IMG/VR virus record: IMGVR_UViG_3300034106_003048
Reading direction: 5' to 3' (one strand)
Origin: an uncultured virus (IMG/VR IMGVR_UViG_3300034106_003048)
Lineage: Duplodnaviria; Heunggongvirae; Uroviricota; Caudoviricetes
Length of the DNA stretch: 64,000 nt
Below are positions 1 to 56,204 of this stretch, piece after piece. Numbering within the stretch: the first letter of the stretch is position 1; each line of letters opens with the position of its first letter. The position numbers and the translations under genes are program-made. The notes beneath the pieces are model-generated. The model saw only the letters and a program-made list of their open reading frames with translations. It did not search any database and was not told the DNA's origin.

Positions 1-2486
1 CTTTCTTTAGATTCTTCTGTTACTTCATAAATATAAAGTTCATTTTCTAAAACGGCTTCTCTATATGCCTTAAAACGAAGTGCTTTATCTAAAGCATCAC
101 CCGGAGGTAAAGGCTTTCCATAAATATCTGTTAAAGAAGAAAGACGAGCTATTTCTTTGTCAATTTCTTCTATTTCATCTAAAGATCCGTCATCAAGATC
201 TTCGTAGTTTCCAAACTTTTCTAAAAGGTTTCTTCTTCTATAAAGAGCTTCAATCTCTGATCTGTCTTCATCGGTTAGTATGTTCATTATATCATAGTAG
301 CTCTGAACATAAGGCCTTTCAGACAAAGAAAGAAGATCTTCTAATTGTTTTTTAAGTTTGTCTATAGTTTCAAAGTTCTGAATATCTTTTGTTTCTTCTT
401 GGAATATTTGATACTTTAAAGTTTCAATATCATTGCTAAAACGAATGTTATCAAAATCTCCATTAAGAACTTTGGCTGGGTATTCTTTTAGTTCTCCTTG
501 AACTTCAGTTCTTCCGTAAGCATCTGTTACGGTTCTCTCAATAAACTTTTTGACAGTTACTTCACGATAAAATCCTTTGTATAGTTTGTCTGCGTCTTCT
601 GTGTTTCCTCTCTCTGCTTCAAGCTCATCAAGTATTGCAGCCATTTCAGAAGCAATATTATCTTTTTCTGCGTTAACTGCTTTTAAACCGTCTTTAACAA
701 AAGTCGCATAGGCAGCAGTTAATTGAGCACTATGAAGTTCATCTGTCCTCATCCAAAACTGAAACATAGCATAAATAGGATTCCTAGGATCAGAACCATC
801 TGTTAATGCTTTTAGAATGTTTTCTTCGGTAGGGAGTGTAGCATCTCTTTTTGCAATAATTTTTTGAGATAATGCTTTTAATGTTTTTACTTTATTTTTT
901 TCTTGTTTAGTAAGAGTTCTTCGAGTTTCAATAAGAGCTAAACCATCTAATTCGTTGTTTACCCATTTAAGTTGTTCTGCATATTCTTTTTCTAAAGGCT
1001 CTAAACTGTCAGCAATTACATCAAACAAAGAAGAAGCTACAAGAGTTAATACACCTTCTTCTTTAAGCTTGAGTTCAATAGCAGACATATTTTCTTTAAT
1101 GTTGTCTATTGTTACTACAAGCCAATCATTTGATGCTAGTCTATTTGCATTTAACGCTGTCTTGTATTCATTAGTTATACTTTTTAGATTGTTAACAACG
1201 TTGTTTAGAAAGTGAAGATCTTTAATTAACTGAATTTTTTTCTCTTGAGAAATGCTAGATAGTCCTGAACCCTTCTTTCCTTTTTGAGCATTTTCTCTAA
1301 TAACAAGAGCAATTGGGTCTAAAACCTTTTTGCTGTAAACTACCATATCTTTACTAAACCTTTCTACATCGTCAAGATAATTAAGTACAGAAGAAAGAAG
1401 ATCAGTTACTCCTTGAAGTTGTCCATCTTTAATTGTTTCATTAATAGCCCTAATGTAATCTTCTGCAACACCCGTCTTCTTTAAAGATATTTCCATACCT
1501 CTTAACAAAGGCTGTATTTTTAAAGTAATGTCCCTAAGCTTTTGATCCATTTCTTTAGTGTAGCTTTTTTCAAAATTGCTTACATACTGAGGATCTACTT
1601 GAAACATATCATCTTGCAAGAACAAAGCATTAAAGTTGTATTGCTCGTTAAAGATGTCGTTTACTGTTTGTTTGAAAATATCTTTAGAAACTATAGACTT
1701 TAACCAAGCCCAAATTCTTTCAAAGATATTTCCTAGTCTTTCGTTATTAACATTTTTCTTGTCATGAAGACCGATATAGTATTCGGCTAAAAGTTTGCCT
1801 ACAGCTTCTCTTTTAATCTTTACTATGTTAGGAGAACCGTCTTCTAACTGGTATTGAGGAAGAGGACTATAAGCTTCTAAAGTTTCATCGTATATCTTAT
1901 AGTTAGTAACTTGCTCCATCAACTGAAGTCTGACATCAGATGGAAGCATTGCTTCAATTATGTGAAAAGCTTCTTCTACAAGTACTCTGTTTTCTCTACT
2001 AGGAGCATAGCGAACTTCTCCATACACCATATCACGTATATCTAATAAGGTTCTAGCAAGACCAGCTATGCTTGATCCTTCTAAAGTAAAATCAGGAATA
2101 ACTTGTACTCCTAGTTTTTCAAGAAGTTGTTTTACTTTAGCCATAGCTTCAGCTGAAGCTGTAGACTGATACACTGCAGGAGACTCTGTTATTTGTTCTG
2201 TGTCATATAAAGGAGTTGTTTCTACACCAGGAAGTTTATCAATTGCATCAAAAAACTTTTCATTAGGTGCAACCACAAATACAGGCTCACCATTAATGCT
2301 AGTTGGAAAGTATTTAAATGGAAGAAGATTTCCAGTATATCCTGTTTCTTTTTTAGTGGCTTGTTGTTGCCTTAAGTTTTCTGCTTCAAATTCGGGTACA
2401 TTGGTTACTGGTAAAACATAGTCTTCATCTATGATTCCTTTTTGCTGTAGTACAGCGATTCCTGTAAGTTGTAGGTTACAATTCAT
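1..2486 (-). CDS. Large putative virion cargo/ejection protein (3' end outside window) with degenerate zincin-like motif
   Basis: Not in the ORF track. I read the frame by hand: ATG at 2486 (MNCNLQLTGIAVLQQKG...) stays open for 828 codons to the window edge. Contains VLVEEAFHIIEAML (~1962-1976), then KREAVGKLLAE and IFERIWAWLKSI. Its only visible Cys is residue 3. Confidence 0.85.
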   Translation of the reverse strand, partial: MNCNLQLTGIAVLQQKGIIDEDYVLPVTNVPEFEAENLRQQQATKKETGYTGNLLPFKYFPTSINGEPVFVVAPNEKFFDAIDKLPGVETTPLYDTEQITESPAVYQSTASAEAMAKVKQLLEKLGVQVIPDFTLEGSSIAGLARTLLDIRDMVYGEVRYAPSRENRVLVEEAFHIIEAMLPSDVRLQLMEQVTNYKIYDETLEAYSPLPQYQLEDGSPNIVKIKREAVGKLLAEYYIGLHDKKNVNNERLGNIFERIWAWLKSIVSKDIFKQTVNDIFNEQYNFNALFLQDDMFQVDPQYVSNFEKSYTKEMDQKLRDITLKIQPLLRGMEISLKKTGVAEDYIRAINETIKDGQLQGVTDLLSSVLNYLDDVERFSKDMVVYSKKVLDPIALVIRENAQKGKKGSGLSSISQEKKIQLIKDLHFLNNVVNNLKSITNEYKTALNANRLASNDWLVVTIDNIKENMSAIELKLKEEGVLTLVASSLFDVIADSLEPLEKEYAEQLKWVNNELDGLALIETRRTLTKQEKNKVKTLKALSQKIIAKRDATLPTEENILKALTDGSDPRNPIYAMFQFWMRTDELHSAQLTAAYATFVKDGLKAVNAEKDNIASEMAAILDELEAERGNTEDADKLYKGFYREVTVKKFIERTVTDAYGRTEVQGELKEYPAKVLNGDFDNIRFSNDIETLKYQIFQEETKDIQNFETIDKLKKQLEDLLSLSERPYVQSYYDIMNILTDEDRSEIEALYRRRNLLEKFGNYEDLDDGSLDEIEEIDKEIARLSSLTDIYGKPLPPGDALDKALRFKAYREAVLENELYIYEVTEESKE

Positions 2487-2498
2487 TTTATCTTTAGA

Positions 2499-4859
2499 TT
2501 ATTCGCAAGTAGGTCTAGTGCCTTCTTCTATTTGTGGTTTTATTCCTGGAAAATAAGTATATAGTTTATTTTGAGTTCTTGATATGCCAGTGTAGATAGC
2601 CATTGCTATATGTAGTGGATCTCTTTCTTTAGGGCCATATAACATATTTTGTACATCTACAAAAGGATTTTTAACAGCTGATCCCTGTACTTTGTAATTG
2701 TTAACAACATATCCGTAAATACTAGTAACTACAGCATCTTTAAACAATGTAAACAAATCTTGTTTACTTACTTCTGCATCAAAAAACTTAACTCTAAAAA
2801 GTCCTTTTGATCTGATTTCATCCCAAGCTTCTTTTCTTGCTTCAAAAGCTTTTTCTGTAGGTATAAATATACTAACATCTATTGGATTCTTTCCGTCTCC
2901 TTTTTCATGATGTTTGACTGATCCAGTTATTTTATATGAAGGCATCTTAATAGTCTTTCTTTCATTCTTTTTGCTTTGAAACGAATAACTATGAACAGTC
3001 TCTTCTATACTTTTTACAAACATCTTACTTTCTTTTAACAACTTAATGTCTTCTAGTTTAGAACCATTGTTATATAAAGCAGAAGTATTTTCATTAGTAA
3101 GAAGAATAAACTCTCCCTCATTTATACCATTTTCGGCACCTTCTTCAAAAAGCTCTTCTCTTATTGTTTTTATAAGTTTTTGAACATTTTCTTTTGTGTA
3201 GGTGTTATAATTAATGTATTGAGTATATTCTGGATCTTGAAAATTATTTATGTTCTCTTCATACATATCTAAGAAATAATCTAAGAATACATCCATGTCT
3301 GTAAAGTTTTCCCACTCATCAGAATAGGCTTTTACGCCTTCAAATACTTTTTTAATATTTGGAATTCTCTTTCCTTCTGGTTGTTCAAGTGCTCTAAGTA
3401 TTTCGTTTCTTAAAGCCATTGATAAGTCTCTAACTCCGGCATTATTGCTTCTCCTGATTTTAACCAACTCAAAGTAGTGAGAAGGCTTTTTTCTTAATAT
3501 ATCAAGAAGCTCGCTAATTTTTTGAGAAGAAACACCAACAGGAGGAGTTTGAGCAACGTCTCCTGTAAAGATAAACTTAGGATACTTGCCAAACTTTTTA
3601 TAATAAATATCTGCGTAATTTTCTAATAACACTCCTAGATCTGGATTGATGTAAGCAAGATCAGTTTTGTAAGCATTATCGTCTTCGTCAAAGTGTTCTA
3701 CTTCTTTTAAATTAAGATTTAGTTCATCCACACTTCCAATCCCATTAATCATAGAAGACTCGTCTATTAAAAAGATTCCGTCGTTGTCTTCTACTAACAT
3801 CCTAGGAACTGTTGGATCTATTTTTTCTGAATCATTTTGTAATAAAGCTGCTCTTTCTATTACTTCTATAGGAAAACTAAAAAAAGCATCTGGACCCCCT
3901 TCAGCTCCAAGTTTTTTTGGTACAGGCTTAAGCCCTAATAAAGATTGTGCTGTAAATACTTTAACTGGTTTACCTTTGAAGTTTCTCTGAAGTACTCCTT
4001 TAGCTTGATGAGTAGGAGCAGCTAAAGTTGCTTTTTTCTTTCCAAGTACAATCTCGCTAATAAAAGTTTTTCCAGAACCACCGGGTCCAGATAAAAAGAA
4101 AGAGTGATTGTAAAAGTTTTCTTTTTTGTCAGAGGTTAAAGGAATATTCTTTTCTAAAAAGTTTTGAATCATTTGATAAGCGTCTATCTGCTCATCTTGA
4201 AGTTGTTTTGCAAGAACATCATTTCCTGAAGGATCTTCAGTCTTTTCATCTTCTGCTATAGCCTCATCTATAGTAAGTTGAGTAGGGCTGAACAATTTAT
4301 AATAAAAGTCTATTACTGCTTTTTGCCTTTGTGCATACTTTACATTTGTCTCTCCTTCTCTTCGACCTAAAGAAGTGCTTACAGGAACTCCGTTTTGAAA
4401 GTAAATTGTAACCTCATTTCCATAATAAGAAATTGTCTTCTCTGTAATAATAGGAGCAGGTTCAGTTTCTTTAATAATATCGGAGGAGTCTTCTAAGAAA
4501 TCTTGAGGAGTTGTGTTAGGCTGAGCTTTGTCACTAACAAAAACATCATAGTCTCTTTCTGCTACAGTTAAAGCATCTTCAATATTAATAATGTTGTCTC
4601 CTAGTTGTATACCGTCAGAATTAGTTACAGAGTATACTCCGTTATCTTGTTCTATTTTATATCCTTCCCTTTTTGCTATGTTTATTCTTTTTTGTAAGTC
4701 ATCTAATTCTTTTTGTGTAGAAGTAAATGAAGATATAGTAGGCTTTTCTTCTTTAGGCGCATACTTAGCATCGTATATAAGTTCAGCCAACAAAGGATTT
4801 CCGCCAGCTTCTTCAAGGGCTTTTTTAAACTCTGGGCTATTTGGATTTACACAACTCAT
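2499..4859 (-). CDS. SF1 (RecD/Dda-like) DNA helicase, probable virion cargo
   Basis: Walker A GPGGSGKT, motif Ia LAAPTHQA, Walker B IDESSM, motif III GDVAQTPPV, motif V KVQGS, motif VI YTGISR. Start reassigned to ATG 4859 (MSCVNPNSPEF), 1 nt after the upstream stop. Confidence 0.85.
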   Translation of the reverse strand: MSCVNPNSPEFKKALEEAGGNPLLAELIYDAKYAPKEEKPTISSFTSTQKELDDLQKRINIAKREGYKIEQDNGVYSVTNSDGIQLGDNIINIEDALTVAERDYDVFVSDKAQPNTTPQDFLEDSSDIIKETEPAPIITEKTISYYGNEVTIYFQNGVPVSTSLGRREGETNVKYAQRQKAVIDFYYKLFSPTQLTIDEAIAEDEKTEDPSGNDVLAKQLQDEQIDAYQMIQNFLEKNIPLTSDKKENFYNHSFFLSGPGGSGKTFISEIVLGKKKATLAAPTHQAKGVLQRNFKGKPVKVFTAQSLLGLKPVPKKLGAEGGPDAFFSFPIEVIERAALLQNDSEKIDPTVPRMLVEDNDGIFLIDESSMINGIGSVDELNLNLKEVEHFDEDDNAYKTDLAYINPDLGVLLENYADIYYKKFGKYPKFIFTGDVAQTPPVGVSSQKISELLDILRKKPSHYFELVKIRRSNNAGVRDLSMALRNEILRALEQPEGKRIPNIKKVFEGVKAYSDEWENFTDMDVFLDYFLDMYEENINNFQDPEYTQYINYNTYTKENVQKLIKTIREELFEEGAENGINEGEFILLTNENTSALYNNGSKLEDIKLLKESKMFVKSIEETVHSYSFQSKKNERKTIKMPSYKITGSVKHHEKGDGKNPIDVSIFIPTEKAFEARKEAWDEIRSKGLFRVKFFDAEVSKQDLFTLFKDAVVTSIYGYVVNNYKVQGSAVKNPFVDVQNMLYGPKERDPLHIAMAIYTGISRTQNKLYTYFPGIKPQIEEGTRPTCE

Positions 4860-4860
4860 T

Positions 4861-6336
4861 TTAATAACATTCTTTAAGCTTGTCAATTGCTTTTTGTCCG
4901 TATTCAGCAACAGTTTGTTTTATAAAAGGCAACACTTGTTCTACGGACATATTGTGTTTTTTAGAAAAGTTCTTTAATATAATTTCTTGTTCATCTTCAG
5001 TAAATGCAGACTCAAATGTAATAGGAGAAATTGCTTCAGATACTGTAGGTTTAGTAATGGCTTTAAGTGTATTAGCATATACATCTCTGATAGCTTCTTT
5101 AGCCTTTTCTTCTTTTTCTTTACCTACATACTCTTCTCTGGGTCTCCATTTACCTTCTTTCTGAACATTATAGTTTTCGATATCTCTACTACCTACTCCA
5201 GCAAAGTTTTTAGTTAGTGTTGGAGTCTCTATTTCTTCAAATTGGGTTCCATCAAACTTATACCATTTTTCTGTTGTAATATCCCACACATAAACAGGTT
5301 TGTTTAACTTAATACCTAATTGTACAGCAGTATTAGTACCTCCTTTAACTTTATCAAATTTATAAGATTTTATAGATTTAGTTATATCTGTAAAATTATC
5401 AGGCTTACTAGTATCAACACTATTATCTAGTTTAGCAATAGCGTATACAGCATCAGCATTATAAACTTGGTAAAAGTTTCTTACTTGTAAATTCTTTTGA
5501 AGTATTTGTTTTTCAGTATCAGTAGATTTAATTGAATAATCTATTCCTAATAATCTTCTAACCTCATTTCTTGCAAAATTCATTTGTTCATCAGTAAGAA
5601 TAGTAGCTTTTACTCCTGCATTTCTAAGCTTTTGAGATAAATTTGGATTATCAACATCTTTATAATGCATATGTTGAGTAACTCCAAACTCTCTGCCAAT
5701 AATATCCCAGTAAGTATCTCCACCATAAGCTCCTCCAGAATGATTTACAAGGTCAGACATTTTTTCTACTCCTTGAGTTGTTACAGATTGAGTAGATGGA
5801 GTTATTTCTTTGAGAGCTCTACGATTGATTTCATCTTCGTACTCACCAACAGTTTTTGCACCAAACTGTTTAAAATCTTGAAAAGAAAGAAGACTATGTT
5901 GATACTCGTGTTCGATTACAAACTTTTCCCAATCATCATATTTTGAAAATGCATCTTCTGGAAGTGCTGTAGCAAAAGAACCATCTTTTTGTTTACGTGG
6001 TTTAGTCCAAGCCTTTTCATCAAATTTCTTTTTAAGCAGTTCTCTATTTAGAAGAATTTGATTTTTTTCAGGAGTATATTTAGCAGCACCGGGTTCTCCA
6101 GTAGCAGCTTTAATATTAGGAGTATCAATTACACTAATACCTTTATATGTTTCTACGTCTGCTTCAAACACACCTTCTTCTTTTGGAAGGACTCCTTCAT
6201 TTTCAAAAGCCACATTCTCTTTAAGAGTTTTCATGTATGCTTCTTTATTATTGATGAAAGATTTTACATCCTTGTAAAGTTCAGATAGTTCTGTCTCGTT
6301 ATATGTTTTACCTCTAAAGGTATAGGTACATGCCAT
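4861..6336 (-). CDS. Putative cargo protein: N-terminal HExxH region plus SLOG/YpsA-like Rossmannoid domain
   Basis: HEYQH with downstream E (EYEDEIN). NHSGGAYGGD, RNFYQVYNADAVYAI, GGTNTAVQLGIKLNKPVYV and FAGVGSR resemble SLOG-superfamily motifs. Confidence 0.65.
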   Translation of the reverse strand: MACTYTFRGKTYNETELSELYKDVKSFINNKEAYMKTLKENVAFENEGVLPKEEGVFEADVETYKGISVIDTPNIKAATGEPGAAKYTPEKNQILLNRELLKKKFDEKAWTKPRKQKDGSFATALPEDAFSKYDDWEKFVIEHEYQHSLLSFQDFKQFGAKTVGEYEDEINRRALKEITPSTQSVTTQGVEKMSDLVNHSGGAYGGDTYWDIIGREFGVTQHMHYKDVDNPNLSQKLRNAGVKATILTDEQMNFARNEVRRLLGIDYSIKSTDTEKQILQKNLQVRNFYQVYNADAVYAIAKLDNSVDTSKPDNFTDITKSIKSYKFDKVKGGTNTAVQLGIKLNKPVYVWDITTEKWYKFDGTQFEEIETPTLTKNFAGVGSRDIENYNVQKEGKWRPREEYVGKEKEEKAKEAIRDVYANTLKAITKPTVSEAISPITFESAFTEDEQEIILKNFSKKHNMSVEQVLPFIKQTVAEYGQKAIDKLKECY

Positions 6337-6347
6337 TGTATTTTAAA

Positions 6348-9300
6348 TTAATCGCAGGTTTTTTCTATTAATTGCAAATATACGCTATTATTGTCCAAAT
6401 TGGTCAGTTGGATTATAAAGTATTCTTCTCCTTTTGACATTTCAACAATTGGATCTACTATACCAAATTCAGCCAAAGCAAGGTTATATATGTTAAAGCT
6501 TTTTTGTGAAGCAGCAGGCTCTAATCCTATAACATTTGAATAATTGTATAGAAGGAAATTGTCTGAAAAGTTATTCAAAGCATCTTTTAATTCAGATGGC
6601 TTTTGAGCTAAGAACTCTTTTATTGCTTTAGTTACTTTTTTAGCATAAATACTTTCAGGTATAATAGGAGCAGTGTTTCCTTCAAAGTATTGGAAACCAG
6701 TGCTTACGTATAAAGTCTCAAGCATTTCTGAAAAGAAGTTTCTTACCTCTGCAGCAAACTCCATATTTTCATGATTATAGTTTAAGAGTTTTACAAAGTC
6801 TGATTTAAATTCATCCTTCTGCATAGAAGTTAATTTGCTTCCTGCAGTAAAGATAAATGTAAAGAAGTCAGAATCTTTCTTAAAGAAAGGTTTAAAAAAT
6901 TTAAGAACTGGAAACTCTTTAACAAGATTAATCTTTTGTGCTTTAGCAGCAGAGATAAGTTTCTTATATCTTTTAGCTAGATTGACATCAGCAGGAGACT
7001 CAAAAGACAAAGGAGATATGTTTTCTATTCCTAAGTTGTTTGCTAGGAAGAAATTGCCTGCATCTTCTGTTTTATAATGATTGTGTATAATGTGCTGCAT
7101 CAAAGAGTCAATAAGCTTTCCATTTATCTTAGCGTAATCAAACTCATCAAAAGGAAGCTGTTCTTTTAATTGTTTAACCACATCAATAAGAGCATTAGCA
7201 ACAGTTTTATTTTTAAGAAGATTGTTAGTCTGTACTTGGAGATCTGCACTGAATGTAGTTAGACCCTCAAAAGGACTAATAACAGTCTGGTCAAAAGTAT
7301 TTAATCCATTAAAGTCATTAGGCAAGTCTACAGTTTGTTCTTCTGTTCTAATTTTATTTTCAAACAATCCGCTTTCTTTTCTAGTGTCAGGAGAATAGTT
7401 TTGGTCAAAAGAAACATAATTAGAAGACTTACCTTCTAGTGCAACATACTGAGCAAGATATAACAACTGATTCATATCTGTAGGATTAGTCAATTGTTTG
7501 GTTAGAGTCTCTTCGCTGAAGTAAGAATACTTAATAGGTTGCATAGAGTTTCTAATACGCATAAGAAGTCTTGGAAAACCAGTTGTCCAGTAGTCTTTAG
7601 CAAAATCACCTTTAGGATTAAAGTGAGTTATCTGTGCTTCTCCTGTGCTAAGTAATAGTTTTTTCTTAGCAGGATTGTTTTCTATAGACATTCTCATTGC
7701 ATACTCTAGATAACCTTCAGAAACTTTCTTCCATTCCTTACTTGCTTTTACTTCACTTCCAATTTTTTTAGCATTAACACCATAACTTGTTTCCATAATT
7801 TCTTTAAACAAGTCCTCTCTTCCATGAAACAAAGCTTTAGCAGCCTGATAATAATGTTCAGGGCTTCTAAAAGAATAAGTTTTCTTTCCTAGTTCTCCGT
7901 AGAAAGAAGCATCATAGAAGTTAGAAAGTTTTTCAAATCCATTTTTATCTGAAGACCAAACATTTACAGGTTTTACGTTAGGATTAAAAAGAACCGCATC
8001 ATAAACATTTTGTAAGGTAGAATATGTTAAGATATCTCCTTGTTTATTTGTAACTAAGAAATTAGCACGTTCTAGAGTAGATCTATACTTTTCTACAACA
8101 GAGTACAGAGCATCTTTTTTCTCAGTCGACAAACCAAGTGCTGATATAAACACAGACTTGGTGCGAGAAATATTATTAGCATAGTCATTAATGCTCGGCT
8201 GTAGAGTAAATGCAATAGCTTCTTCTACATTAGTTCCACGCTTAACAATATACATTTGAACAGGTCCTTTTATCTTGTTTACTCCTAATAGAGATATCCA
8301 AGCACCTTTTGCAATATCCACTAGTCCGTTAATATACTGGCTGAACATTGATGATATAAAGCGGCCTTTTTTATCTCTTAACATGGATAGAGAGTTTTCG
8401 TTATTTGTCTCTAACATGTAAGGACTTTCGCTAGTATCATACAAATTCATTTGAGCAGTAATCTGGTGAGTTTTGTTCATTCTAGCAGCAACACCAAGAA
8501 CAGCTTTACCTACCATGAATGATTCAAATATTTGGTTGGAGGTTACTGCTTTAATCAAAGAAGTAAAGCTTCCAGTTGCTTCTTTAATGTACTTTGTTTT
8601 ATTGTTAAAGTACTGTGGAAGAGACTGACCATCTTTTTCTCCTTGAAGATCTGGGTTAGAGTTAGGAAGAATAAGTTTAACTAAGATATCAGGATTACCC
8701 AAACGAGTAGCTATTACATCTACAAACTCATTTGACCTTCCATACTTTATTTTTCTAAGAGTATTTGTAGCTTCATTGATCTCATTCTTTATCTCAGACA
8801 TGAAAGCAAAGTTCTTTTCTATCTTCAAGAGAGCCTTGTTAATGTCTTTGCCTAAATCTTGAGTCATTTCAACAACTTCTTTGTTGGCGTCACTAAGTTC
8901 AGAAGTATTCATTACTTCTTCATCCTTAACCATGACATCTTCAGCAATAAGATTTCTTTCAGTTTCAATTACTCCCTTAGAAATCTCTGATACCTTTTGA
9001 TCAATAATTGCTAATATTCTCTCATCTTTTACTTTTTCTTTAAGAGCCTTAACTTGGAAAGCAAACTTTACTTTTTTCTTACTGTAAGTGTCAAGCAAAG
9101 AATCAAGTTTTTCCCTAATCTTTATTTCTTCTGTTGCAGAAATATAAGGATAAAAATCTCCATTCTCATCCATAGTAGGTTCAAACACAAACAATTTATC
9201 AATGTCAAAGTCAGAACCTGTTTTAACAACAATCTCTTCGGGAAGAAGCATTAGTGTTCCGGCAGAAGGAGGTAAGAACTGAACAACTCTCATTCTTTCC

Positions 9301-12300
9301 ATAGAGTTAAGACCTTGTGTAGGAACACGAGCTCCAACCAAAGTTACTTTCTTTCCATGCTCTTTAAAGAATTCTTCATCACGAAGCAGAGAATTAAGTT
9401 TAGCTATAGTTCCAATTCTTTCTCCTTTCCAAACAATATTCAACAAAGGTTTATATCTTTCAGAGAAAGCAATCTTTACATCGCAATACTGATAGTCTTT
9501 TGAGTAGAACCTCATATCGTTTGTGCCGTAAACTCTTTTTTGCAAAGCAGTTGCTTTAGTAAAAGGAGTGTTACCTAAGTTAGCACCTTGGATATAGTTA
9601 GTTCCAGAAAGCTTTTGTTTAATAATACGATTATAAACTATATTATCAAGAATACTGCTTATAGAACGTCTTTCAGTAGAGCCGTTATAGTCAAATACAA
9701 ACTCTTTGTTTTTAGTTACTAAGAAAGTAAATACTCCACTACTTACGTCTTTTGATTTTAACTCTCTTTCTAAAAACTTAGAAAGGGCAACACTAGATAC
9801 ATCAGAGAAATCATCCTTCTTAGCACCTAGTTGTTTTTTAAGTTTTTCTTTCTCTACAGAAATAAGTTCTTCAAGTACTTTTCTAAAGCGATTATATTGA
9901 CGATAAGTTACTTTGTCAAATTTTCCCTTTTCCGCTTCATCTAAGAAAAGAAGTCCTCGCATCTGAGTAGGGAATATAATTTCCTGTATACCTGTGTGAG
10001 GAGAGATTTTAACCTGTTCTTTAAAGAAGTCTGCGTAAACTTCATTTACTTTTAAAGGCTGTTGGTTTACATTTCCTTTTTCGTCATAAAAATCTTGGTA
10101 ATCAGAACCATCCATTAAAGCAGAGTCTTTAACACCACTTGCCATAACAAGATAGTCCACATTACTTTGGTACATATTCTCTACCATCTTAAAGAGATCA
10201 CTCTCTTCTATGATGATTTCTCCTTTACTGTTTACTGTAGGAACCAAAGTAAGTGAAGGAGTAGCAGGATAGATTGAGAACTTTTCAAAATGTGTTACAG
10301 GAAACTTGTCTGCAATAGGACCTGCATACTGAGGTTTCTGAGGTTCAAACACATAGTTTTGTTCTTCTATAAGATTATTAATTTGTCTTGCTATTCTTTG
10401 AGCAGCTGCAGGATTACTTAAAGAAGCTTTGTACTCTTTGTAAAGATTATAGATTTCAACTTCTTTTTCGTATATGGCTTCTTGTTCTGGCAACCATTCT
10501 CCAATTGTAAGCTTTGAAAATCTGTAAAAGTCTAAAGTAGCTATACCTTGACCATCAGCTCTTTCAGCTCCTTTACCAGTAGTGCCGTAACCTTCTAAGA
10601 ATTTTTTAGCTTCCTCTATATCAATTCCTAGTTCTTTAGAAACTAATTCAACATATTCATCTTTGTTAGGACTGTCAACTAAAGTGTCTTTTGTTATAGC
10701 AACTCTTATTTTATCGGTATATGGCGATGAAGTTCCAGTTGCTGCTTTTTGAAGTTTTCTTTCATAAGCAGCACTTGAGTTTAAAGTGTCTAAAATATCA
10801 GGACTAGTAATCATGTATGTACCAGTAGCTGAGTATTTGCTTAGACGTTTAAATACATCGTCTGTGTTTTTAAAGAATGCAGGGTCCCTATAAAAGAATT
10901 TAAACTGCTCAATTCTATGAAGAGTATCATAATAAGTATAAGCAAGTAAAAGCTGTGCAGTTGTAAATTGAGAAAACTTACCAGCATTAGGCAAAAGAGT
11001 TCTTAAGAATTTCTCTTCTTCTAGTGGGTTGAAAGAAAGTTTTTCAACAATGTAATTTTTTAAATCCTCAGCCTCCTGTTTAATGTAATCTGCAAACTGG
11101 AAGTTTACTTCATAATCATACAAAACATCAGTTATGTAATCTATTTTTTCTTGAATGGTAGAAAGCTTGTCTATAGCATTATGTAGGTTGTCTCCTTCAA
11201 GAACATCTGAAGTTTCTTTATCTACTATGTCAGCTAAGAATCTAAGTTTGTCTCCATTCTTATCGTAGTTTTTATATTTGTTTTTCTCTTTGTTAAGTTT
11301 TCTAGCTTTGTTTATTGCAAGAACTTCTGCTACTGCATGGTTCATAAAACCATCTAGGTTATCTTCCCAAGAGTCCCCAGTAAACGGAGTTATAGCATCA
11401 ATGTTTGTTGCAAAGCCGGTTGAAGTTACAGGTTGTTTGTAAACATCATTAAGAGGCTTCTCAATATAAACTGCGTAAGCACTTCCTTTATCACCAAAAC
11501 GAATATTCTCTTGAACACCTTTAGTTAAGAATCCTTGTATGTCAGTAAGGAGTTTATCTACGGAAGTAAGATTGGTGGTCTTTTTACCAGTAAGTCTTTT
11601 ATTTTGTTCGTATTCTGTTCCACCAAAGTGAACTACTTTAAGCAAAGCTTCAGGAGTTCCTTGAGCATTCAAAATACGATTTCCATTTATGTCATAAAGT
11701 TGAGACATCCAGTTACTACCATAAGAGAAAGGATCTATTGTAGAATCTAAATAACCTAACTGAGGTTTCATTTTTAACAAATCACCAAAGGTAGGATAGT
11801 ACTCTTCGTGGGTTTGGCTAACAGGAAGGTCTGTTATGTCTTTACCAACATATTGAGCTTTTAGACGTAGCATTGGTTGATTAATCCAACTTGCTACTTT
11901 GCTCATAAAGTGGAATTGGTTTTTCTTGTATATATAGTTTCCCTCTGGGTTGCTAGCTTCGTCAGTAAAATAATCATCTTGATTTTTAAGATAAGTACTA
12001 ACTAACTTACTAACACTTTTTGATACCATAAACTTTACCTGGTTTATAGGATCGTTTATAGCAACAGTAGGATTGGCTTGTCCGTAAGAAACAATAGCTT
12101 TAGCGTATTCTTTAACAGCTTGTATAAACTCTCTTTTTTCTTCAGTAGAAACAAGTTGTTCTGTTACACTTTGGTCTATGTAAATACCTACGTTTTCTGC
12201 AAGTTCTAAAGCAAGTTCAAGTCCAACTAAAAGAGTTTTTGCGTCTCTGTCAATTTGTTTTAAAGCTTCTTTTACTTTATTAATATCAATTTCTCCGGTT

Positions 12301-15300
12301 TCTTGTCCGTTACCCTTTTTAGTAAATTCAGTTCCTTCAGTTTTAAACCTCATACCCCAGTCTTTTAAGACTCTAGTAGAAGCACGAGATTCTGCAACGA
12401 TTACATTAGCAACTAATTTAGTTTCGCCTTTTGGATTGCTTTTTGTAGGAGGAACACTTTCACTATTAAGTCTAACTTTGAGCATATCAACAATAGGCTC
12501 AGAGAAGGTGTTAATAAAAGCTGTCTTTAAAGTAAGTTCTCCTTTAGTTACACCTTGTTGGTTATACTTAGGAAGAGACTCTAACAAGAAATTAAACTCA
12601 GGATTTTCTTTGGCTAGCTCTTCTATCTTATATAACATGTGAGCATAGTCAGTAACATTAGCCAAAAGTGAGCTAAGTATTTTCCAGTTTTTAGTAAAGT
12701 TATCCAAAACAGGAAGTCCCAACAAAGGAGTTCTTTCAAACCTATTGTTTTTGTGTTTTCTTATAGAAGCTACTAAAGCAATTACTTCGGGCTTACTTCT
12801 GCTTATAGAAGAAAACTCTTCAATGCTTTTGTTGAAAGCAAAGTCTTTTTGTGCTTCATCGCTGTTTTGAGAGTCTTCTAGGTACTCGTCATAAACAGAT
12901 ACTGCTCTGTTAGTAAGAACAGTAGAAAGCGTTGCATGAGCTTTAACAACTTTATTCCAGTCATTTAAGATAGCCTCATAACGTTCTATCATAGGAGCAC
13001 GATCGCTCTTGTTTTGTTTTTTAAGATCGTCTAGGTTTTTCTGAAGAGTTTCTTTTAAAACAACATAAATGTTTCCTATGAACTTCTTGTTCTTTTTATT
13101 TGCTAAAACAGTTCCAAGGGAAATACGCTTGTTTGTTCTTTCAGAAATATTATCTAAAACTTGACTAATAATAGTTGCATCTAAGTTAGATATAAGTTCG
13201 TTTAAGTCTCTGTCAGAAAAAATAACTTCTTTGCCTAAAGGTGTTTTTAAATTCAAAGAGTTTGCTCTACCAGAGAACAATTCTTTAAACATAAAATTGT
13301 TTTCGCTTGGAGCATACTGATTTATATTGCCAGTATACAAAGCTTCAAACATTTTGTTTATCTCAAACTGAGGATTATTAAATATCCTTTGAATAAATTT
13401 ATAGATCTTATCGTAAATTTTCTCTATTGCGTTTTTAGGCTTAGCCTCAGACCTTTTGATTGCGTAGTCTTGATATCCTTCAGCTAAGTACTCTTCTGCT
13501 TCTTTAAATGATACATTACCTATCTTTTTCTGAACATTCTTATAGAGTTCAATCTTTTCTGCTCTAGTCAAAAAGTATTGGCTAAATACGTGCCATGATT
13601 CGTGATAAAGATCTATATCGCTACTTCCTTCATAAAGAGTAATTAATCCTTTTGTAAAGGCAGCATAAGCTTGGCTGTTTACTACATTGAAGAGTCTTCT
13701 TACATCTACAAGTTTACCTATTTCAGAAGATTCAAACCACTCTAAAGCTTTTTTAGCAAGTTCCTCACTTTGTCTGCGTGGAAGATTTCTAGATCTAAAT
13801 AAACCATCCATGCTATCAAGATCAAAATCTTCTGGAGTTTGAGGTTCTTCAGGAAAATTAAACTCTTGTTCTTCTAGTGTAGTTGGTTCTTTAACAGTCT
13901 CTTTAGCAGCTTCCTCTTCTTTTTCTAAAGTTTCAACAACTTCAGATATAGGATTTAAATCTAAAGGAACAAATTCTTCATCTGGAACAAGAGCTTCATC
14001 TGGAACAGCTGGTCCTTCTACATCAGAAAAAGTAAGTTCTACAAAAGGTTCTTCTTGATCAACAAGAGTACTAGTTGTTTCTTCTTCAAATTCTGTTTCT
14101 AGAACAGGTTGTCCAAAATAAAACTTGCGATTAAATCTTGTTTGTAAAGGAACAAAGAAACTAACTTGGCTATTAACAAAGTCTTTGTAGTTAACTTGTC
14201 CTCCAGCAACCAACTTATTATTAGCAGTGTCTAAAGTATAAGTAGTAAAAGGGCTATACTTATTGTAGTTAGTGTGGTTAAAGTTTAAGTAACTATCTTT
14301 AAGTGTGTTTACAATGTCTTGTCCGTATATAACTTTTCCGTCTAGACTAGCAACAACTCTTCCTTCAACAATTTGAAAAGAAATACGTCCAGATTGACTT
14401 CTTGGATTAGTATAAACTAAATTGTTTATGTATTGAAGTTTTTTCTCAGCAGTATTAAGTTCTTTAGGTAGCTCGTTGTTTGGAGTCTCTGCAATAAATC
14501 TTATAACCTCTGCTTGTTCCTCAGTTAGTTTTGGAAAAACTACTCTTGTAAGTTCATCTTGGTAGTATCCTACAATATAACCTTTGGGTAGACTTGATTC
14601 AGACTCTTCTACATCAGTTCCAACAACAAGTAATTTTTCGCCATCAGTAGGAACTAATTTATATTTCTTACCATCTACCTCTTTAATTGCGCCACGAGAT
14701 AGCTCAACATCAGGAACAACAAACACTAAAGAAGGATCATTCTTAAGTTGGGTCCTAACATCATCCATATAAATAATTGCTTTTTGGATAATAGGATTTA
14801 AGAAATCAACTTTAATAGCTAAATAGTCTTCAAGTATTGCTTTGCCTTTTATTCTTCCTCCGGCTTTAGGTAAATTTCTGTGGATGGGAATACCTCTTGA
14901 GTTAAGTCCTTGTGGAGTATATCTTAGTATGTTTCCTTTCTTATCAGTAATAAAGAAAGCAGGAGCTTTTAAATCTTCATTAAATTGTTTTAGTCCATTT
15001 TCTGCCCACCAAGCAAGAGTCTTTGTGTAGAAAATAGGTTTGTTATATTCAGTAAAAATTTGAGAAAGCTCTGTAAATTTCTCATCAATAGATTTAGCTG
15101 AGTCAAGTACCGAACTAATCTTAGCAATAATGTCTGGACCCATCAACTTCTCAAGATAACCTTGCATAGAGGTTATTCTTGCAGAAGGAAAATCTGTTAT
15201 ATTTTTTAGAATTGCATTAACTGCTTGACTGTAGTCGTCCTCAACTTCTTCGTCTTCTTTATCAAACTCATCAGATGAAGTTATAAAGCCAGACTGAGGA

Positions 15301-18300
15301 AACAATATACGATTGTCTTTTTCTTCCCACTCTCCAAGAACAGTATCTTCATCGGTTTCAACTAATACTTGATCTATGTTAGGATCTTGGCTAATAACTT
15401 GGTCTTTTAATTTTCTAGCAGATTTTAAAGTAGCAACAGGAATTTGAATTAAATTTGCATCCCTGTCAAAACCTTCTATATAATCTGGACCAAGCATATT
15501 AAAGTCACCGGCTTCTACTTTAGTTCCATCAGTTAAACTAATTAGGTAGAATGCTTCTGGATTAGCATTAATAAGTTTGTCTCTTGTTGCAACTTGTTGT
15601 TTGGAAACAGTTCCAACTTTTTTGCTTCCTTTCTTTCTTTTTTTACCTTTTGTAGGAGTTTCTTCAGGTCCTTCTACAGGAACAAATTCTTCTTCGGGTG
15701 CAAAAGTTTCAGGAACTATAACTTCTTCGGGAGTAACGTCGAGGGTTTCTTTAGCATCAGGTCGTTCAATATATTCTAGAAGTTCAAATAAATAATTTAA
15801 TTGCACTTCTGCATTCTGAGTTGCTTTAACTAAAGACTCAAGTTCTTTTTCTTTATTATTAAGTTGTTCTTCAGTTGAGGTAGCAAAGTCAATAGAGTCT
15901 GAAAGTTTTTGAACTTGTTCTTTAGTAGGATATTGTCCCTCTTCTAAGATTCCTTTTTGTGTAGAAAGAATCTCTGCAATGTTAGAAATTGCTTGTTTAA
16001 GTTTTTCTATTACACGTTTTGCTTTATCAACAAGTTTATTTAAGCCTTTAATTTTATTGTCTAAGTAGTAAATCTTTTCCCAAATATCAGGAATAGTAGC
16101 TTGTCCAGATGCTACAAGAGATTTATAATAATTAGATTTGTTTTGAAGATTTCTTTTAAGCTCACTTATTCTTTTTAAATTATTCTCTACTTCTCTAATG
16201 CTGTCTATAATAGATTGTAGTTTAGTAAAATGAGATCTGACCTCTTGTTCTAGTTGAGATCTTCTGTTAGCTATATTTTCAGAACGTTTGCTTCCTTTAG
16301 GTGCAGTAATCTTGCTAAACTCTTTCAGTTCTTTTTCTGCAGCCTGTACAGACTCGCGCATTATTGCTTTTTCTTCTTCTAACAGAGTGTCAAGAAAAGC
16401 AAGTCTTTCTTTTTCTACATCCATCTCAGCAGTAAGAGCTTTTATCTCTTCTTCAATAGCTGCTATCTTCTCACCAGTACTAGCAAATTGTTTATCACTA
16501 GCAATAACAACTCCAGTAGCAGAAGTCTTAGTTTCTTCTTGTTCTTCTTGTTGTTCTTCTTGTTTTTCTTCTTCTACTGTTGGAGCAGCTTCTCCTTCTT
16601 TAGAAGGTTCTGCTTTAAGTCCTGAAAGCCTGGTTTTAAGTTCTTGTATAAAATCAGCAGGAACACCTTTACCCATAACTCTATAAAGAGATCTGCTAAT
16701 AGTTCCCTTGTTGAAATCTTCTTTAAACTTTTGTAAACTTTCAGCTGCAGTTTCTGGAGAGACCTTCTTAAAAAAGTCTTCCATCCTATTGAATAAATCA
16801 TCTAGGCTAGTAAAGTTGTCTCTAATAATACCTAAAGATGTATTTACAAACTTTGCTTTTATTTCGCTTCTTGCTGCAGCTTGCTCTTCAGCATCTCCTT
16901 CTATTTGAGAAAGTTCTTCTTGATATGCAGTAAAAGCTTCTTCTATCATAGAAGGCACTTGTTCAGGAGAAACTGTTTCTGCAGTCTCTGCTGGAGGAAA
17001 TGGCTGATTTGCATCAGTCATTGCTTTAAGTTCAGCTACTCTTTCAAAAAATTGTTCTTTTAAATCTGTAAGTTTATCTTCTCTTTCTTGTCCTTCTAAC
17101 CCTTTTACAAATTTAGAAAATAAAGTATCTTGTATATAACCTTCTCTAATTTGATGTAGTAAAGGACGACCATTACTCACTAGTGGTCTTTTGTTTTTAT
17201 CTACAGTTACATAGTTTCTAGCAAGAGCTTCAATAAACTGATTTTCATCTTCAATAGCAAAAATTGGACCGGCTGTACTTAAGAGTGATACTCCTAGTAT
17301 ACCTTTCATTGTTGCTACTTGAGTTTCATTATATAATTTTGCATTTTGTGAAAGCAATCCAATTTTATAATCTAATTGCTCAAAAGTTAATCCTTGATTA
17401 TTGTTAACTATAAATTTAAAGAAATTATCAGCAGTAGCTTCTCTTGCTTTCTCTAATGAAGTTATATGTGCAGTTAAAGGAAAAGCAAAAACTTTAGGAT
17501 TTTGTTTTTGGTCTTTTTTATAGTGTTCAATTAAATGATCGAGCAGTGCAGGAGAAAGATCTTCGGATTCAAGAATGTCTTTTCTTTTTCTTTCATAGTT
17601 ATCTGCAACAATTTTATTCTTTTCTTCAGTTGTTAAATTTTCATATAAACCAGCAGCTTGTTCTGTTTTATAGAGTTGACGATCTACCTCTTCTAGTTGT
17701 TTTGTATATTCTTCTTTTTCTTCTTCGGTAGGAACATAGTTAAGTAGTTTTTGTTTCTCAAGAATATTTGAAAAATAAACAGCCTGTGCATCTTTATCCT
17801 GTAAGAGAGTTTTCATATCCCTTACAGAGTTTATGTTTATAGGTAAGGTTTTTAATTCTGCTTCATACTTTCTTATTTGTCCTACTTTTTGAAGGTATTC
17901 TTCTTGCGTTATTTTGTTAGCATCAAGTTGGTTTGTCAAATAACTAATGTAGTGGTCTGGATTGTTGGCTATTTTCCAACGATAGATTGCTTTGTTAAAG
18001 TTATCAGCACGTTTAGTGCCTCCCCCCATAGCAAACGCAGTTAAAGCCATACCAGCTATAGCCTCAACTCCAGTATCAATTATGTTATCTACTGTTAAAT
18101 CGTTTTGTGTAACATACTCAGGGTTTAATCCTACAGCATATTGGTCAACAAAATGATTTCCCACTAAAGCTAGTTCTTCTTCTACTATTGCTTCTTGTGC
18201 TATATCTTTAGTAATGCCTACAGCCCTTTTAGCAATTCTACTGTCAAGAATTCTTCTAACTGCTTTATTAGTCATACCTGGAAATAATCCCCTAACTGTA

Positions 18301-20204: not shown

Positions 20205-20238
20205 TTTATTTATTTTTAATGCAGTTTTGTAGTTAAAT

Positions 20239-21960
20239 TTATTTGATAGAACTGTTTAAAGAATTATAGAGACTGTCTATTCCTCCTTTTCCTGTTATAG
20301 AAGTTTCAGGGCTTTTAAAAAGATCTGAATAAGATGTGGGAGCAGTAGGAACAAATGGAGATGGGCTTTGAGGTGTTGGTTGCATATATCTAGAACGAAC
20401 ACTTTGTTCATAGTCTCCATAGTAAGGCTTTTCAAGTTTTAATTCTGTCCTAAACGCTTCATCAAATTTGTCTTGCCAAACTTCAACTATTCGATCTTCT
20501 CCAGCTTCTTTAAACCTTACGTTAAATCTATAAGTTTTGTCTGGGTTTTGTTTAATACTAACATCATTCAAATCAAATCCTTCTTCTGGAACAGCATTAG
20601 GATCTCCGGTGCTATTTATTACACCATTCTTTAGAATGTTTTGTAAAGCAATTCTTTCATCTCCTGATAAAGCTGCTACATTTAATGGTTCCCAAGTTTG
20701 AGAGGTAGTTCCATTATTAGTAAACTTTTTAAACTTTTCAGAAGCTTTTTGTGCTGCTTCTATTGTTAGTCCCATTTCTTCTTTTCTAGCCTCAGTAAGT
20801 TTTAATGGTATGCCTCCAGGACCAATTACATAGGTATTAGCATCTTCTCCATCTTTTGTTAAACCAAGTCTTTGTTTTTCTTTAGCCAAAGTTACTTCTT
20901 TATAGTAATCTTCATTTTTACGAAGGCTAGATTGGAATTGTGCTAAAGCATAAGGATTAGCAGTTAACTCTTCTTTTACTTGTTTGTAAGCGTAGAAGTC
21001 AGATTGTCCAGTTATAAATTTAGCATAAAGATCGTTTATGATTGCAGAGTCTGCTACAGCTTCTGTTTCATTAAAATTGGCTAGAGATTCTGTTAGTGCT
21101 TCTTTTTTAAGTTTTAGTGTTGCTAAATTTTGTCTGTCGGCATCACTAAGAACTCCTTTATATTGTTCGTATTGAGCAATCATATTGTCAAGCGTACTAA
21201 GTTGTTTTCCTCTAGTTTCATAGTAATAATCTACTTTTTTCTCGGGACTCATGTTTCTAGCTTGGTACATTGCATCAATTTGAATCTGTTGCTTTATATG
21301 CGAAGGTAAAGCATCTTGCATAAAATTAAACAAGTCATTATTAACTAATTCTTCTGTAACAGTTTCTATGTTATATTTTCCGTCAGGAGTCATAGTTATT
21401 TTAGATTTAATGTCAGGTTTAGCAGTTTTAAGCAATTCATTAATATACTTAGTAGGATCGTTATAAGGAACATATTCTTTTCCTGAACTAAGACTGCTTC
21501 CTACTTTACCATCGTTAAGCCATTCTTTAGCATCTTGTAAGTATAGCCAATCATTTGCTGCATTTCTTTCATCAGGCTTCATCTTAGAGAGAGTTTCATA
21601 TCTTCTTGAATATTCTTTGCTAGACTTAATAGCATTAAGCAAATTAACATCGGTTTCAAGAGGTCGAGAAACTGCTAAAATATTTCTTACATTTGCCATA
21701 TTAGCAAAGTCTGTTTTTCCAGAACTTTCATTAATAGCTTTCATATACTTATCCATTTCTTGAGAAAAGTATTTCTTGTCACTATCTTTTATAAGTTGGA
21801 ATCCATACTTATCTAATTCGCTAATATGTTTTTGAACCTTTTCTACGTTAGTGTCATAAGCTTGTTGTTTGATAGCACCAAGTTTAATAACCTCATCGGC
21901 AGGAAGAGGACTTACATATTCAGGATATTTAAGAAATTGATGTTTATGTGAAATAGGCAT
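20239..21960 (-). CDS. Putative ejection/cargo protein
   Basis: 573 aa, helical-looking, no Cys seen. Lies directly upstream of the vRNAP gene, as internal virion proteins do in crAss-like phages. Confidence 0.6.
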   Translation of the reverse strand: MPISHKHQFLKYPEYVSPLPADEVIKLGAIKQQAYDTNVEKVQKHISELDKYGFQLIKDSDKKYFSQEMDKYMKAINESSGKTDFANMANVRNILAVSRPLETDVNLLNAIKSSKEYSRRYETLSKMKPDERNAANDWLYLQDAKEWLNDGKVGSSLSSGKEYVPYNDPTKYINELLKTAKPDIKSKITMTPDGKYNIETVTEELVNNDLFNFMQDALPSHIKQQIQIDAMYQARNMSPEKKVDYYYETRGKQLSTLDNMIAQYEQYKGVLSDADRQNLATLKLKKEALTESLANFNETEAVADSAIINDLYAKFITGQSDFYAYKQVKEELTANPYALAQFQSSLRKNEDYYKEVTLAKEKQRLGLTKDGEDANTYVIGPGGIPLKLTEARKEEMGLTIEAAQKASEKFKKFTNNGTTSQTWEPLNVAALSGDERIALQNILKNGVINSTGDPNAVPEEGFDLNDVSIKQNPDKTYRFNVRFKEAGEDRIVEVWQDKFDEAFRTELKLEKPYYGDYEQSVRSRYMQPTPQSPSPFVPTAPTSYSDLFKSPETSITGKGGIDSLYNSLNSSIK

Positions 21961-21981
21961 CTTTTAGTTTTTTAATTGTTT

Positions 21982-25077: not shown

Positions 25078-25128
25078 AACTTTTAAAGTTAGGTTGAGTT
25101 AATAGAAATATAACTCTCTGTATTATTA

Positions 25129-25158
25129 CAAAGATATATTAAAATTTATAAAAGTCAA
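25129..25158 (-). promoter_or_regulatory. Bacteroidota sigma-A type promoter for the cargo/vRNAP operon
   Basis: Minus strand TTG-N19-TATCTTTG, matching the -33/-7 (TAnnTTTG) consensus, in the intergenic gap upstream of the 25077 start. Confidence 0.75.
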
Positions 25159-25179
25159 GTTAATTCTTTAGGTTAAGAA

Positions 25180-25341
25180 TTACTTACGTCCTTGACCTCT
25201 ATAGCGTTTTTTGTAGTTCTTAGATGTTTTAAGACCAGAATTGTTCTTTTTAGATACAATTCCTTTACGTCTTACTTTAGGTTTAGCTTTCCTAATAGAA
25301 ACTCCTAGTGAGCTCTTACTAGATCCTTTACTTGGTGCCAT
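25180..25341 (-). CDS. Small basic phage protein with C-terminal YRGQGR motif (53 aa)
   Basis: Below the ORF-track cutoff. Hand translation MAPSKGSSKSSLGVSIRKAKPKVRRKGIVSKKNNSGLKTSKNYKKRYRGQGRK. Start overlaps the end of the upstream gene. Confidence 0.75.
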   Translation of the reverse strand: MAPSKGSSKSSLGVSIRKAKPKVRRKGIVSKKNNSGLKTSKNYKKRYRGQGRK

Positions 25342-25690: not shown

Positions 25691-25692
25691 TT

Positions 25693-29062: not shown

Positions 29063-29075
29063 AGTTTAAAGGAAA

Positions 29076-29468: not shown

Positions 29469-29480
29469 AGGGATTTTAAA

Positions 29481-30272: not shown

Positions 30273-30289
30273 TTTATTAAGATTTGTTT

Positions 30290-31573: not shown

Positions 31574-31575
31574 TG

Positions 31576-33587: not shown

Positions 33588-33591
33588 TTAA

Positions 33592-33981: not shown

Positions 33982-33985
33982 TTTA

Positions 33986-41178: not shown

Positions 41179-41183
41179 TTTTA

Positions 41184-41214: not shown

Positions 41215-41226
41215 GATTTATTTTAA

Positions 41227-41257: not shown

Positions 41258-41296
41258 CATTCAAGGGAAAACCAATAAACCCATGAATTATGTCTT

Positions 41297-56202: not shown

Positions 56203-56204
56203 AA

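Follow-up and report, generated by a model that had tools for sequence, protein, structure and literature searches.

The window analysed here is a stretch of 64,000 nucleotides (nt) from an uncultured virus of the Caudoviricetes (IMG/VR record IMGVR_UViG_3300034106_003048). Its subject of interest is four consecutive minus-strand genes, the products of which carry cysteines (Cys) almost exclusively at their ends. Translation of the open reading frames (ORFs) gives 6,723 visible residues with only seven Cys in total. Six of the seven are residue 3 or the penultimate residue, always at ends facing each other across a gene junction, and the sole non-terminal one is Cys3574 of the giant first protein (context YQYCD). 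The first protein ends in EKTCD, the second starts with MAC and ends in KECY, the third starts with MSC and ends in PTCE, and the fourth starts with MNC. These residues and Cys counts agree exactly with a first-pass annotation made from the letters alone, and translation also bears out its remark that the giant protein has no N-terminal Cys and that the 573-amino-acid (aa) protein encoded upstream has no Cys at all.

The first chain member is a giant virion RNA polymerase (vRNAP) protein of 4618 aa (6348..20204; window coordinates are on the minus strand unless marked otherwise). It starts with MAEENK, ends in LQLIEKTCD and contains Cys3574 and Cys4617 only, the codon of the penultimate Cys4617 lying at 6354..6356. 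A DFDID catalytic motif is formed by residues 3665-3669 (9198..9212), and a NADAR domain (residues 4085-4199; 7608..7952; Pfam PF08719, E 5e-12) is fused in as a payload. BLAST against the crassvirus crAss001 matched gp47 at residues 2106-2267 (E 4e-9) and gp50 at residues 3401-3676 (E 6e-14) and 3888-4014; judged by these matches, the giant ORF is a gp47-like part followed by a gp50-like part. By tblastn, RNA polymerase (RNAP) genes were matched in 94 phage records, those listed being crAss-like phages; no PDB sequence matched the giant protein.

The second protein (wagon 1; 491 aa; 4861..6336) has Cys3 and Cys490, the latter encoded at 4867..4869. It matches the DprA-like family PHROG 768 (E 3e-7). 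No Pfam family, DprA/Smf PF02481 included, was matched at E up to 0.001, and a Foldseek search with its AlphaFold2 model gave no hit within E 0.001, the sole lead in fold being a weak one to 3imk. We take it to be a SLOG protein and therefore write SLOG/DprA-like. In the model (mean pLDDT, the per-residue confidence, 74.8; above 90 in the core, 190-430), the head module, residues 1-46 (type A; MACTYTFRGKTYNETELSELY...; 6199..6336), consists of Cys3, a beta-hairpin (4-13) and helices (14-46). A disordered stretch covers residues 42-91, and the tail is a terminal helix (465-490; 4864..4944; ...IDKLKECY) ending at Cys490.

The third protein (wagon 2; 2499..4859) is a Dda-like helicase of superfamily 1 (SF1; PHROG, E 2e-31). 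Its 786 aa are counted from the first ATG, an upstream TTG start being possible at 4910. Cys3 (codon 4851..4853) lies in a head of type B (MSCVNPNSPEFKK...) and Cys785 (codon 2505..2507) in the tail GTRPTCE; tblastn of the helicase against phages found no match. The labels vRNAP and helicase given by the first-pass annotation thus hold, the one by the DFDID motif and the gp47/gp50 homology, the other by the PHROG match. The last chain member (3..2486; 828 aa visible), a gp49-like RNAP-associated protein, has Cys3 only (codon 2478..2480); its ORF leaves the window, and its C-terminus was read through homologs. A profile built from these homologs matches crAss001 gp49 (E 6e-15), phi14:2 g065 (1e-13), cr108_1 gp052 and cr50_1 gp060, all four at 27-53 bits. 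With single sequences, BLAST linked the fourth protein weakly to the gp49/g065 type (E 3.5e-4) and phmmer found no link to named crassvirus proteins. The traits of a Crassvirales RNAP block found in the window are a DFDxD motif, a gp49/g065-type protein and a position after the muzzle and cargo genes.

It is extremely improbable that Cys would be so placed at random. The hypergeometric chance of at least six of seven Cys falling in the seven named slots is 3.8e-19, and it is 2.9e-13 if 42 slots, six residues per visible end, are allowed. The three breaks read TAA, 11 nt, ATG; TAA, 1 nt, ATG; and TAA, 12 nt, ATG, with no common DNA motif beyond the Cys codons. No intron was found in the window by Rfam and no long direct repeats in 1..21000, and we rejected a cause at the DNA level on these grounds. 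Readthrough or recoding in the window was rejected as well, because the standard code yields long ORFs.

Next, conservation of the terminal Cys was examined in homologs of three of the four proteins, wagon 1, the helicase and the last protein, and found in each. No more than two Cys occur in 74 of 82 wagon-1 homologs, and of the 133 Cys in the whole set 88 lie within six residues of an end. Cys tips are present at both ends in 22, at the C-terminus only in 40, at the N-terminus only in 4 and at neither in 16, many of the 82 being gene fragments of short contigs. All six helicase homologs have exactly two Cys, one near the start and one at the penultimate residue. For the fourth protein, the best 150 of 202 matches, representatives of clusters at 50% identity, were taken; the 107 of at least 1000 aa were counted and the 43 shorter ones excluded as likely fragments. 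Cys occurs at residues 2-6 in 97 of the 107, and 84 contain a single Cys. The last six residues are free of Cys in all 107, as had been expected of a protein that ends the chain. P0089, the closest among the fourth-protein matches listed (1800 aa, 53% identity), starts with MNCSLELNS and has a single Cys.

If facing Cys belong together, they should appear and disappear together at junctions. An alignment search with the SLOG domain gave 78 viral loci (numbered with L below), taken with 10-kb flanks. ORFs of at least 150 aa were called on the plus strand from the first ATG in the standard code, or with TAG read as Gln in the 13 loci where this more than doubled ORF length. Nested ORFs and junctions truncated at a locus end were dropped, junctions identical in 7+7 residues were merged (163 to 136), and only gaps of at most 300 nt were kept, which left 113 unique junctions. 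Both facing ends carry Cys in 58 of these and neither does in 38; an N-terminal Cys alone is found in 10 and a C-terminal Cys alone in 7. Pairing of C-terminal with N-terminal Cys thus follows protein order, as the first-pass annotation had proposed (Fisher p = 1e-13, a value that overstates independence, the junctions coming from related sequences and not from independent events). Most of the 17 discordant junctions have a recognizable form: the missing Cys lies 7-12 residues from the end in five (L004, L022, L036, L037, L054), a small ORF stands between two tipped partners in six (L012, L013, L058), and several genes are inserted between partners in four (L002, L050).

The 106 unique ORFs of 1000 aa or more in standard-code loci contain 162 Cys in 277,104 residues (0.058%), 110 of them terminal. 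In relatives reading TAG as sense (L024-L034, L070, L078), the Cys content of the giant proteins is about eightfold higher (0.45% vs 0.058%) and the terminal pairs are kept. One giant ORF (L017, 2..13561) has 14 Cys, nine of which fall in residues 3797-3871 and include CASSCVYC (CxxxCxxC); apparently a payload domain that depends on Cys has been kept in a protein with few Cys elsewhere.

It had been predicted that fused homologs would lack Cys at the junction, and this was seen in three sets of cases. Most relatives carry the window's SLOG and helicase domains within one giant ORF, in a region free of Cys; the 3456-aa protein of L002, for example, has three Cys in total. Another middle protein of about 307 aa (MSC...AIC) is separate in L008, L015, L049, L055/56 and L067, with a more distant form in L009. 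It matches the C-terminal ~135 residues of giant ORFs in L011, L041/43, L044, L046, L059, L064, L065, L075 and L007. These giant ORFs have a C-terminal Cys and none at the split point; three have one distant internal Cys and that of L011 has an N-terminal Cys. Finally, the homologous proteins P0084, P0087 and P0088 join the wagon-1 head, other domains and the helicase body, lack the helicase's own 26-aa head and have two terminal Cys only.

The named crassvirus cr108_1 (L085, NC_055878) offers a natural negative control for the pairing rule. Its break between gp054 and gp053 cuts GSD|FDID and is a group I intron (RF00028, 80 bits, E 8e-21), with no Cys pair; the next break, a true protein break, has one (...NLCK, then MANVCPN). 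The intron (20866-21184) interrupts the catalytic motif, and its exons are annotated as separate proteins.

The sequences around the terminal Cys recur as modules. Of the unique N-terminal heads that have Cys at residues 2-6 (232 in all), 32 are of type A (M-[AS]-C-x-Y-x-[YF]-x-G-x-x-Y...EE[LF]), 73 of type B (C-[PV]-N...[PE]-E-W-K-x-L) and 127 of other types. In the window, wagon 1 bears type A, the helicase type B and the fourth protein one of the other types. Head A was never found inside fused proteins. Tails of the form '..L-x-I-K-x-x-C' precede it in L004, L019, L036, L037 and L048, there on an end protein of about 1150 aa, and in the window it follows LQLIEKTCD. Since head A follows such tails in five distant loci and in the window, tails and heads may be cognate; since the same head is carried by the SLOG wagon, by AlkB-helicase wagons and by the ~1150-aa end proteins, the couplers appear to be modular.

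Between these constant ends, payloads are exchanged. Two proteins 99% identical to wagon 1 (P0002 and P0003) have an AlkB domain of about 280 aa (2OG-FeII_Oxy_2) inserted after residue 60, in the predicted disordered linker, and judged from sequence this difference is a very recent gain or loss of a payload. Elsewhere among the homologs, ends of the same kinds enclose NADAR, DUF7831, DUF1848, RNase H, ART-PolyVal or UvrD_C_2. The swapping of payloads suggested by the first-pass annotation is therefore seen both in the AlkB insertion and in one head on different bodies.

Facing Cys are also present in phages known by name. Eight named crassviruses were chosen by polymerase or SLOG similarity, blind to Cys content, and six of them, in the deposited annotation, have facing Cys within nine residues of the ends. 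In crAss001, Cys -3 of gp47 (counted from the C-terminus) faces residue 5 of gp50, and Cys -9 of gp50 faces residue 5 of gp49; pairing holds even though gp47 is encoded on the opposite strand from its partner genes. This pattern implies the order gp47, gp50, gp49, which is the co-linear order of the window's fused ORF and fourth gene. In phi14:2, the last residue of g067 faces Cys3 of g066, and Cys2179 of g066 faces Cys3 of g065. In p-crAssphage LMMB, Cys1956 of 1957 residues faces MSC, and cr130_1, cr108_1 and cr50_1 also have facing terminal Cys. As annotated, the remaining two, crAss002 (L083, MN917146) and cr273_1, deviate. The former fits if gp33 starts at an internal ATG giving MSCTPSNPKL, a typical type-B head, and the annotated start (15954-16060) is probably 32 codons too early; the latter has its tail Cys further from the C-terminus. 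The last protein has no C-terminal Cys in all eight. These proteins are virion components: gp45, gp46, gp47, gp49 and gp50 were detected by mass spectrometry in crAss001 virions (PMC10172136), and the phi14:2 record annotates g065-g067 from tandem mass spectrometry proteomics.

All genes in 1..58,400 are on the minus strand, and a Pfam scan shows the crassvirus structural module (capsid, ring proteins, muzzle) upstream of the polymerase block, the major capsid gene (Crass_capsid) at 48239..49804 and the muzzle gene (crAss_MUZ) at 33986..39265. The muzzle gene is followed by a nearly Cys-free, cargo-type block of ten ORFs (20239..33497), with no terminal Cys facing the polymerase; the 573-aa protein mentioned above and a 1031-aa protein, both upstream of the giant ORF, have zero Cys. 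Altogether, the 14 ORFs in 3..33497 (10,991 aa) contain 15 Cys, and the remaining 27 ORFs of the window (8,653 aa) contain 148. No close DNA relatives were found by megablast of the window against phages. Searches of viral contigs with a 39-nt pattern gave no match and those with single proteins no usable locus, and metagenome scans for relatives of the window gave no match.

Some other features of the window deserve mention. Neighbours within the cargo block share N-terminal sequences (25693..27924 with 27911..29062, and 29076..29468 with 31576..31854; ..SYLKEL.E.KRQ.KPK.QV and MKG.RLK..), which suggests paralogous pairs. A 130-aa DUF6321 protein of the block has a C-terminal Cys (..RRRWKC). 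In contrast to the Cys-poor cargo block, three adjoining proteins (41297..44305) of 580, 195 and 173 aa are rich in Cys, with 23, 13 and 8, two of them ending in Cys clusters (..KYCKTC and ..NCCNC); they are probably outer tail parts. Two tRNA genes were found by Rfam on the plus strand, at 63553..63648 and 63813..63885 (32 and 50 bits).

We propose that the four proteins are ejected cargo, probably tied head-to-tail by inter-protein disulfides at each break. They would be packed in the phage head and ejected into the host in the order giant gp47+gp50-type polymerase, SLOG/DprA-like enzyme, Dda-like helicase, gp49-type polymerase-associated protein. The coupler at each break would consist of an upstream C-terminal helix with its Cys and a conserved downstream head of about 25-45 aa with Cys at residue 3-5. 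In the virion, the tail would dock on the next protein and the two thiols would form the disulfide, so that the linked gene products would act as one linear, stoichiometric polypeptide in the order of the fused homologs; with the remaining Cys purged, only facing pairs could form. The chain would then pass through the tail in its linear order, and reduction in the cytoplasm would open it. The first-pass annotation had read the pattern as such a covalent train. It is supported in part: every sequence-level prediction listed for that reading was borne out, and the bond itself (disulfide or metal), ordered threading and reductive release are what we infer. A solved example of this kind of link is known from cyanophage A4, where the C-terminal helix of gp27 inserts into gp26 and a Cys1715-Cys5 disulfide is seen by cryo-electron microscopy (PMC12002296). 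By analogy with it, the most likely reading is that a disulfide ties head to tail wherever the ejected polymerase module is broken into separate proteins. The crAss001 virion itself has inter-subunit disulfides in the tail and portal vertex (PMC10172136). Complex prediction with the last 200 residues of the giant protein and wagon 1 scored 0.02 (mark 0.32), the partner's own fold being uncertain, and speaks neither for nor against a link.

Several observations weigh against this proposal. The crAss001 cargo density is unresolved, and the accessible text of the structure paper reports no cargo disulfide (PMC10172136). Phage assembly happens under the reducing conditions of the cytoplasm, and the habitat of gut phages is anoxic, which puts the timing of thiol oxidation in question. 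Packaging of the two wagons is something we infer from Cys depletion, gene position and fused homologs. The pairing rule is not strict, Cys lying at -7 to -12 (L004, L022, L036, L037), at -9 in gp50 and at -50 in cr273_1, ahead of a low-complexity extension, and the relatedness of the junctions calls for caution here too. Ten of the 107 end-protein representatives have no Cys in the first six residues; it lies at residues 7-9 in six, further in for two, and is absent in two. In the 23 TAG-recoded ORFs, the terminal pairs are kept and 271 Cys occur in 59,592 residues, many of them internal. An 861-aa protein of p-crAssphage LMMB (L082, 4682-7267) has a lone Cys860, and the next gene has no N-terminal Cys. 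Similarly, crAss002 (L083, 5259-6932) has a 557-aa protein with Cys550 near its C-terminus, followed by a gene without N-terminal Cys. The pairing rule does not account for such lone-Cys cargo proteins on the upstream side of the polymerase block.

Other explanations have to account for the same pairing. The ends might dock as proposed and the two thiolates might coordinate a metal (Zn, Fe or Cu), assisted by Asp, Glu or His residues close by. Next to the Cys there is often an acidic residue or a His (TCD, PTCE and KECY in the window, NHCKGGK in cr130_1, DDCNK), and a metal bridge would need no oxidant, which suits anoxic habitats; with one Cys per end, flanking ligands not conserved across tails and a disulfide in the solved A4 example (PMC12002296), we nevertheless regard it as unlikely. 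A terminal Cys might also bond to its own counterpart in a further copy of the protein, or to a different virion component, for example the portal or capsid, instead of the neighbouring cargo protein. A Cys47-Cys47 link joins the crAss001 gp57 homodimer (PMC10172136). However, such links explain neither the correlation of C-terminal and N-terminal Cys between neighbours, nor the joint loss of both Cys on fusion, nor the end protein never having a C-terminal Cys, and this makes them rather improbable.

If the terminal thiols served other chemistry (acylation, a thioester, an enzyme-made ligation or a packaging tag for a putative factor), recognition could lie in the conserved heads and tails that surround the Cys. 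We give little credence to this, as Pfam detects no intein or ligase domain in the four proteins, the Cys is not the first residue and the A4 precedent is a plain disulfide. Likewise, no Pfam match was found for split-intein (Hint) halves at the protein ends, the head being a 46-aa hairpin with helices and the tail a helix. Self-cyclisation, with the two Cys of one protein bonding into a ring, would suit the middle members, which carry exactly one Cys per end. The first and last members are single-tipped (the giant and fourth proteins of the window, g067 and g065 of phi14:2, gp27 and gp26 of A4), and 84 of the 107 end proteins have one Cys in total. The directional pattern following gene order thus argues against rings, as the first-pass annotation had reasoned, and leaves them very improbable. 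Chance, mutational bias or a DNA or mRNA signal at gene junctions can practically be dismissed: the chance value is 4e-19, a junction motif is absent, partner genes can be non-adjacent or on opposite strands, and the pattern is kept among representatives of 50%-identity clusters. Self-cyclisation, other thiol chemistry and chance all fit the pairing and end-member data poorly, and on the pairing data we rejected self-cyclisation, homodimers and chance.

Returning to the disulfide-tied chain, we put forward a broader and much more tentative idea, namely that heads and tails form a portable coupler code. A helix-Cys tail and its cognate 25-45-aa Cys head might enrol any enzyme at a set place in the train, to be packed in fixed stoichiometry, ejected as one thread and released by reduction, and crassviruses might use this to split, reorder and swap anti-defence payloads that are still delivered together.

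Crassviruses are the most abundant phages of the human gut, and these findings bear on how their cargo, amounting to megadaltons, is packed and leaves through a narrow tail. The pairing rule predicts from sequence which proteins are tied and in which order, which makes the question testable in two cultured phages. It also reads off likely injected enzymes, SLOG/DprA-like and helicase here and AlkB, NADAR, RNase H and ART in relatives, and would explain why splitting a giant polyvalent protein into genes need not end joint delivery. The crAss001 structure paper considers cargo order 'likely to be controlled' by packing and mutual interactions (PMC10172136).

The first-pass annotation knew of no description of such a system. 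This stands in part: literature searches, with subscription journals and supplements largely uncovered, found no paper on terminal Cys links in crassviruses, whereas the A4 gp27-gp26 pair has been solved and Cys suppression in ejected proteins is known from N4-like phages (PMC11445570). In the accessible text of the crassvirus atlas (PMC10172136), the word cysteine is absent and nothing is said on cargo ends; the phi14:2 preprint (10.1101/2020.03.07.982082), as far as accessible, contains neither Cys nor cysteine nor disulfide and describes no cargo disulfide. The ejection proteins of Schitoviridae (DEV gp71-73, N4 gp50) resemble block 3..33497 in their strong Cys depletion. In N4-like phages, however, depletion is near total (0.00075% Cys in gp71 homologs) and terminal Cys pairs are unreported in the accessible text (PMC11445570), whereas the window keeps one Cys per facing end.

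Polyvalent proteins (Iyer et al. 2017, PMC5512222) are similar in domain repertoire and in the logic of being injected with the DNA. Helicases appear in the accessible text of that paper, from which the words cysteine and disulfide are absent, and overlap beyond helicases runs through the Pfam family name ART-PolyVal. The window's homologs have AlkB, NADAR, ART-PolyVal, RNase H, DUF1848, SLOG/DprA-like and SF1 helicase domains, and the window's giant ORF combines polymerase and NADAR, with SLOG and helicase separate here and fused in relatives. A polyvalent protein is one polypeptide, whereas the modules of the window are separate gene products with couplers at the breaks. A further likeness is to crAss001 gp47/gp50/gp49 and phi14:2 g067/g066/g065, which are homologous, virion-borne by mass spectrometry and obey the same facing-Cys rule. 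The window differs in that its gp47-like and gp50-like parts are fused and two extra Cys-tipped enzymes precede the gp49-like protein.

In its proposed mode of linkage, the chain resembles gp27-gp26 of A4 (Anabaena phage A-4L), where likewise an upstream Cys near the C-terminus meets a Cys by about residue 5 of the next-encoded protein. According to the A-4L record, Cys1715 is the sole Cys of the 1717-aa gp27 and Cys5 the sole Cys of the 1114-aa gp26. The window has tail Cys at 4617/4618, 490/491 and 785/786 and Cys3 in three heads, and is otherwise near Cys-free; a tail helix as in gp27 is predicted for wagon 1 by its model, and capsid location and ejection as in A4 would follow from homology to the proteins gp47, gp50, gp49 and g065 detected by mass spectrometry and, for the two wagons, from fused homologs and Cys depletion. 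BLASTP of the window's proteins against gp27 and gp26 gave a best E of 0.68, that is, no sequence similarity, and A4, which has a single pair, belongs to another family (Saffermanviridae). The A4 bond is described as stabilising, and the accessible text describes no chain, conserved couplers or variable payloads (PNAS 2025, PMC12002296). By analogy, then, the chain of the window would work like the A4 pair without belonging to its family. What is new here is a four-member chain with two Cys-tipped enzyme wagons between the polymerase and a gp49-like end protein, that is, the split form of a SLOG and helicase add-on fused elsewhere, together with constant, interchangeable head and tail modules.

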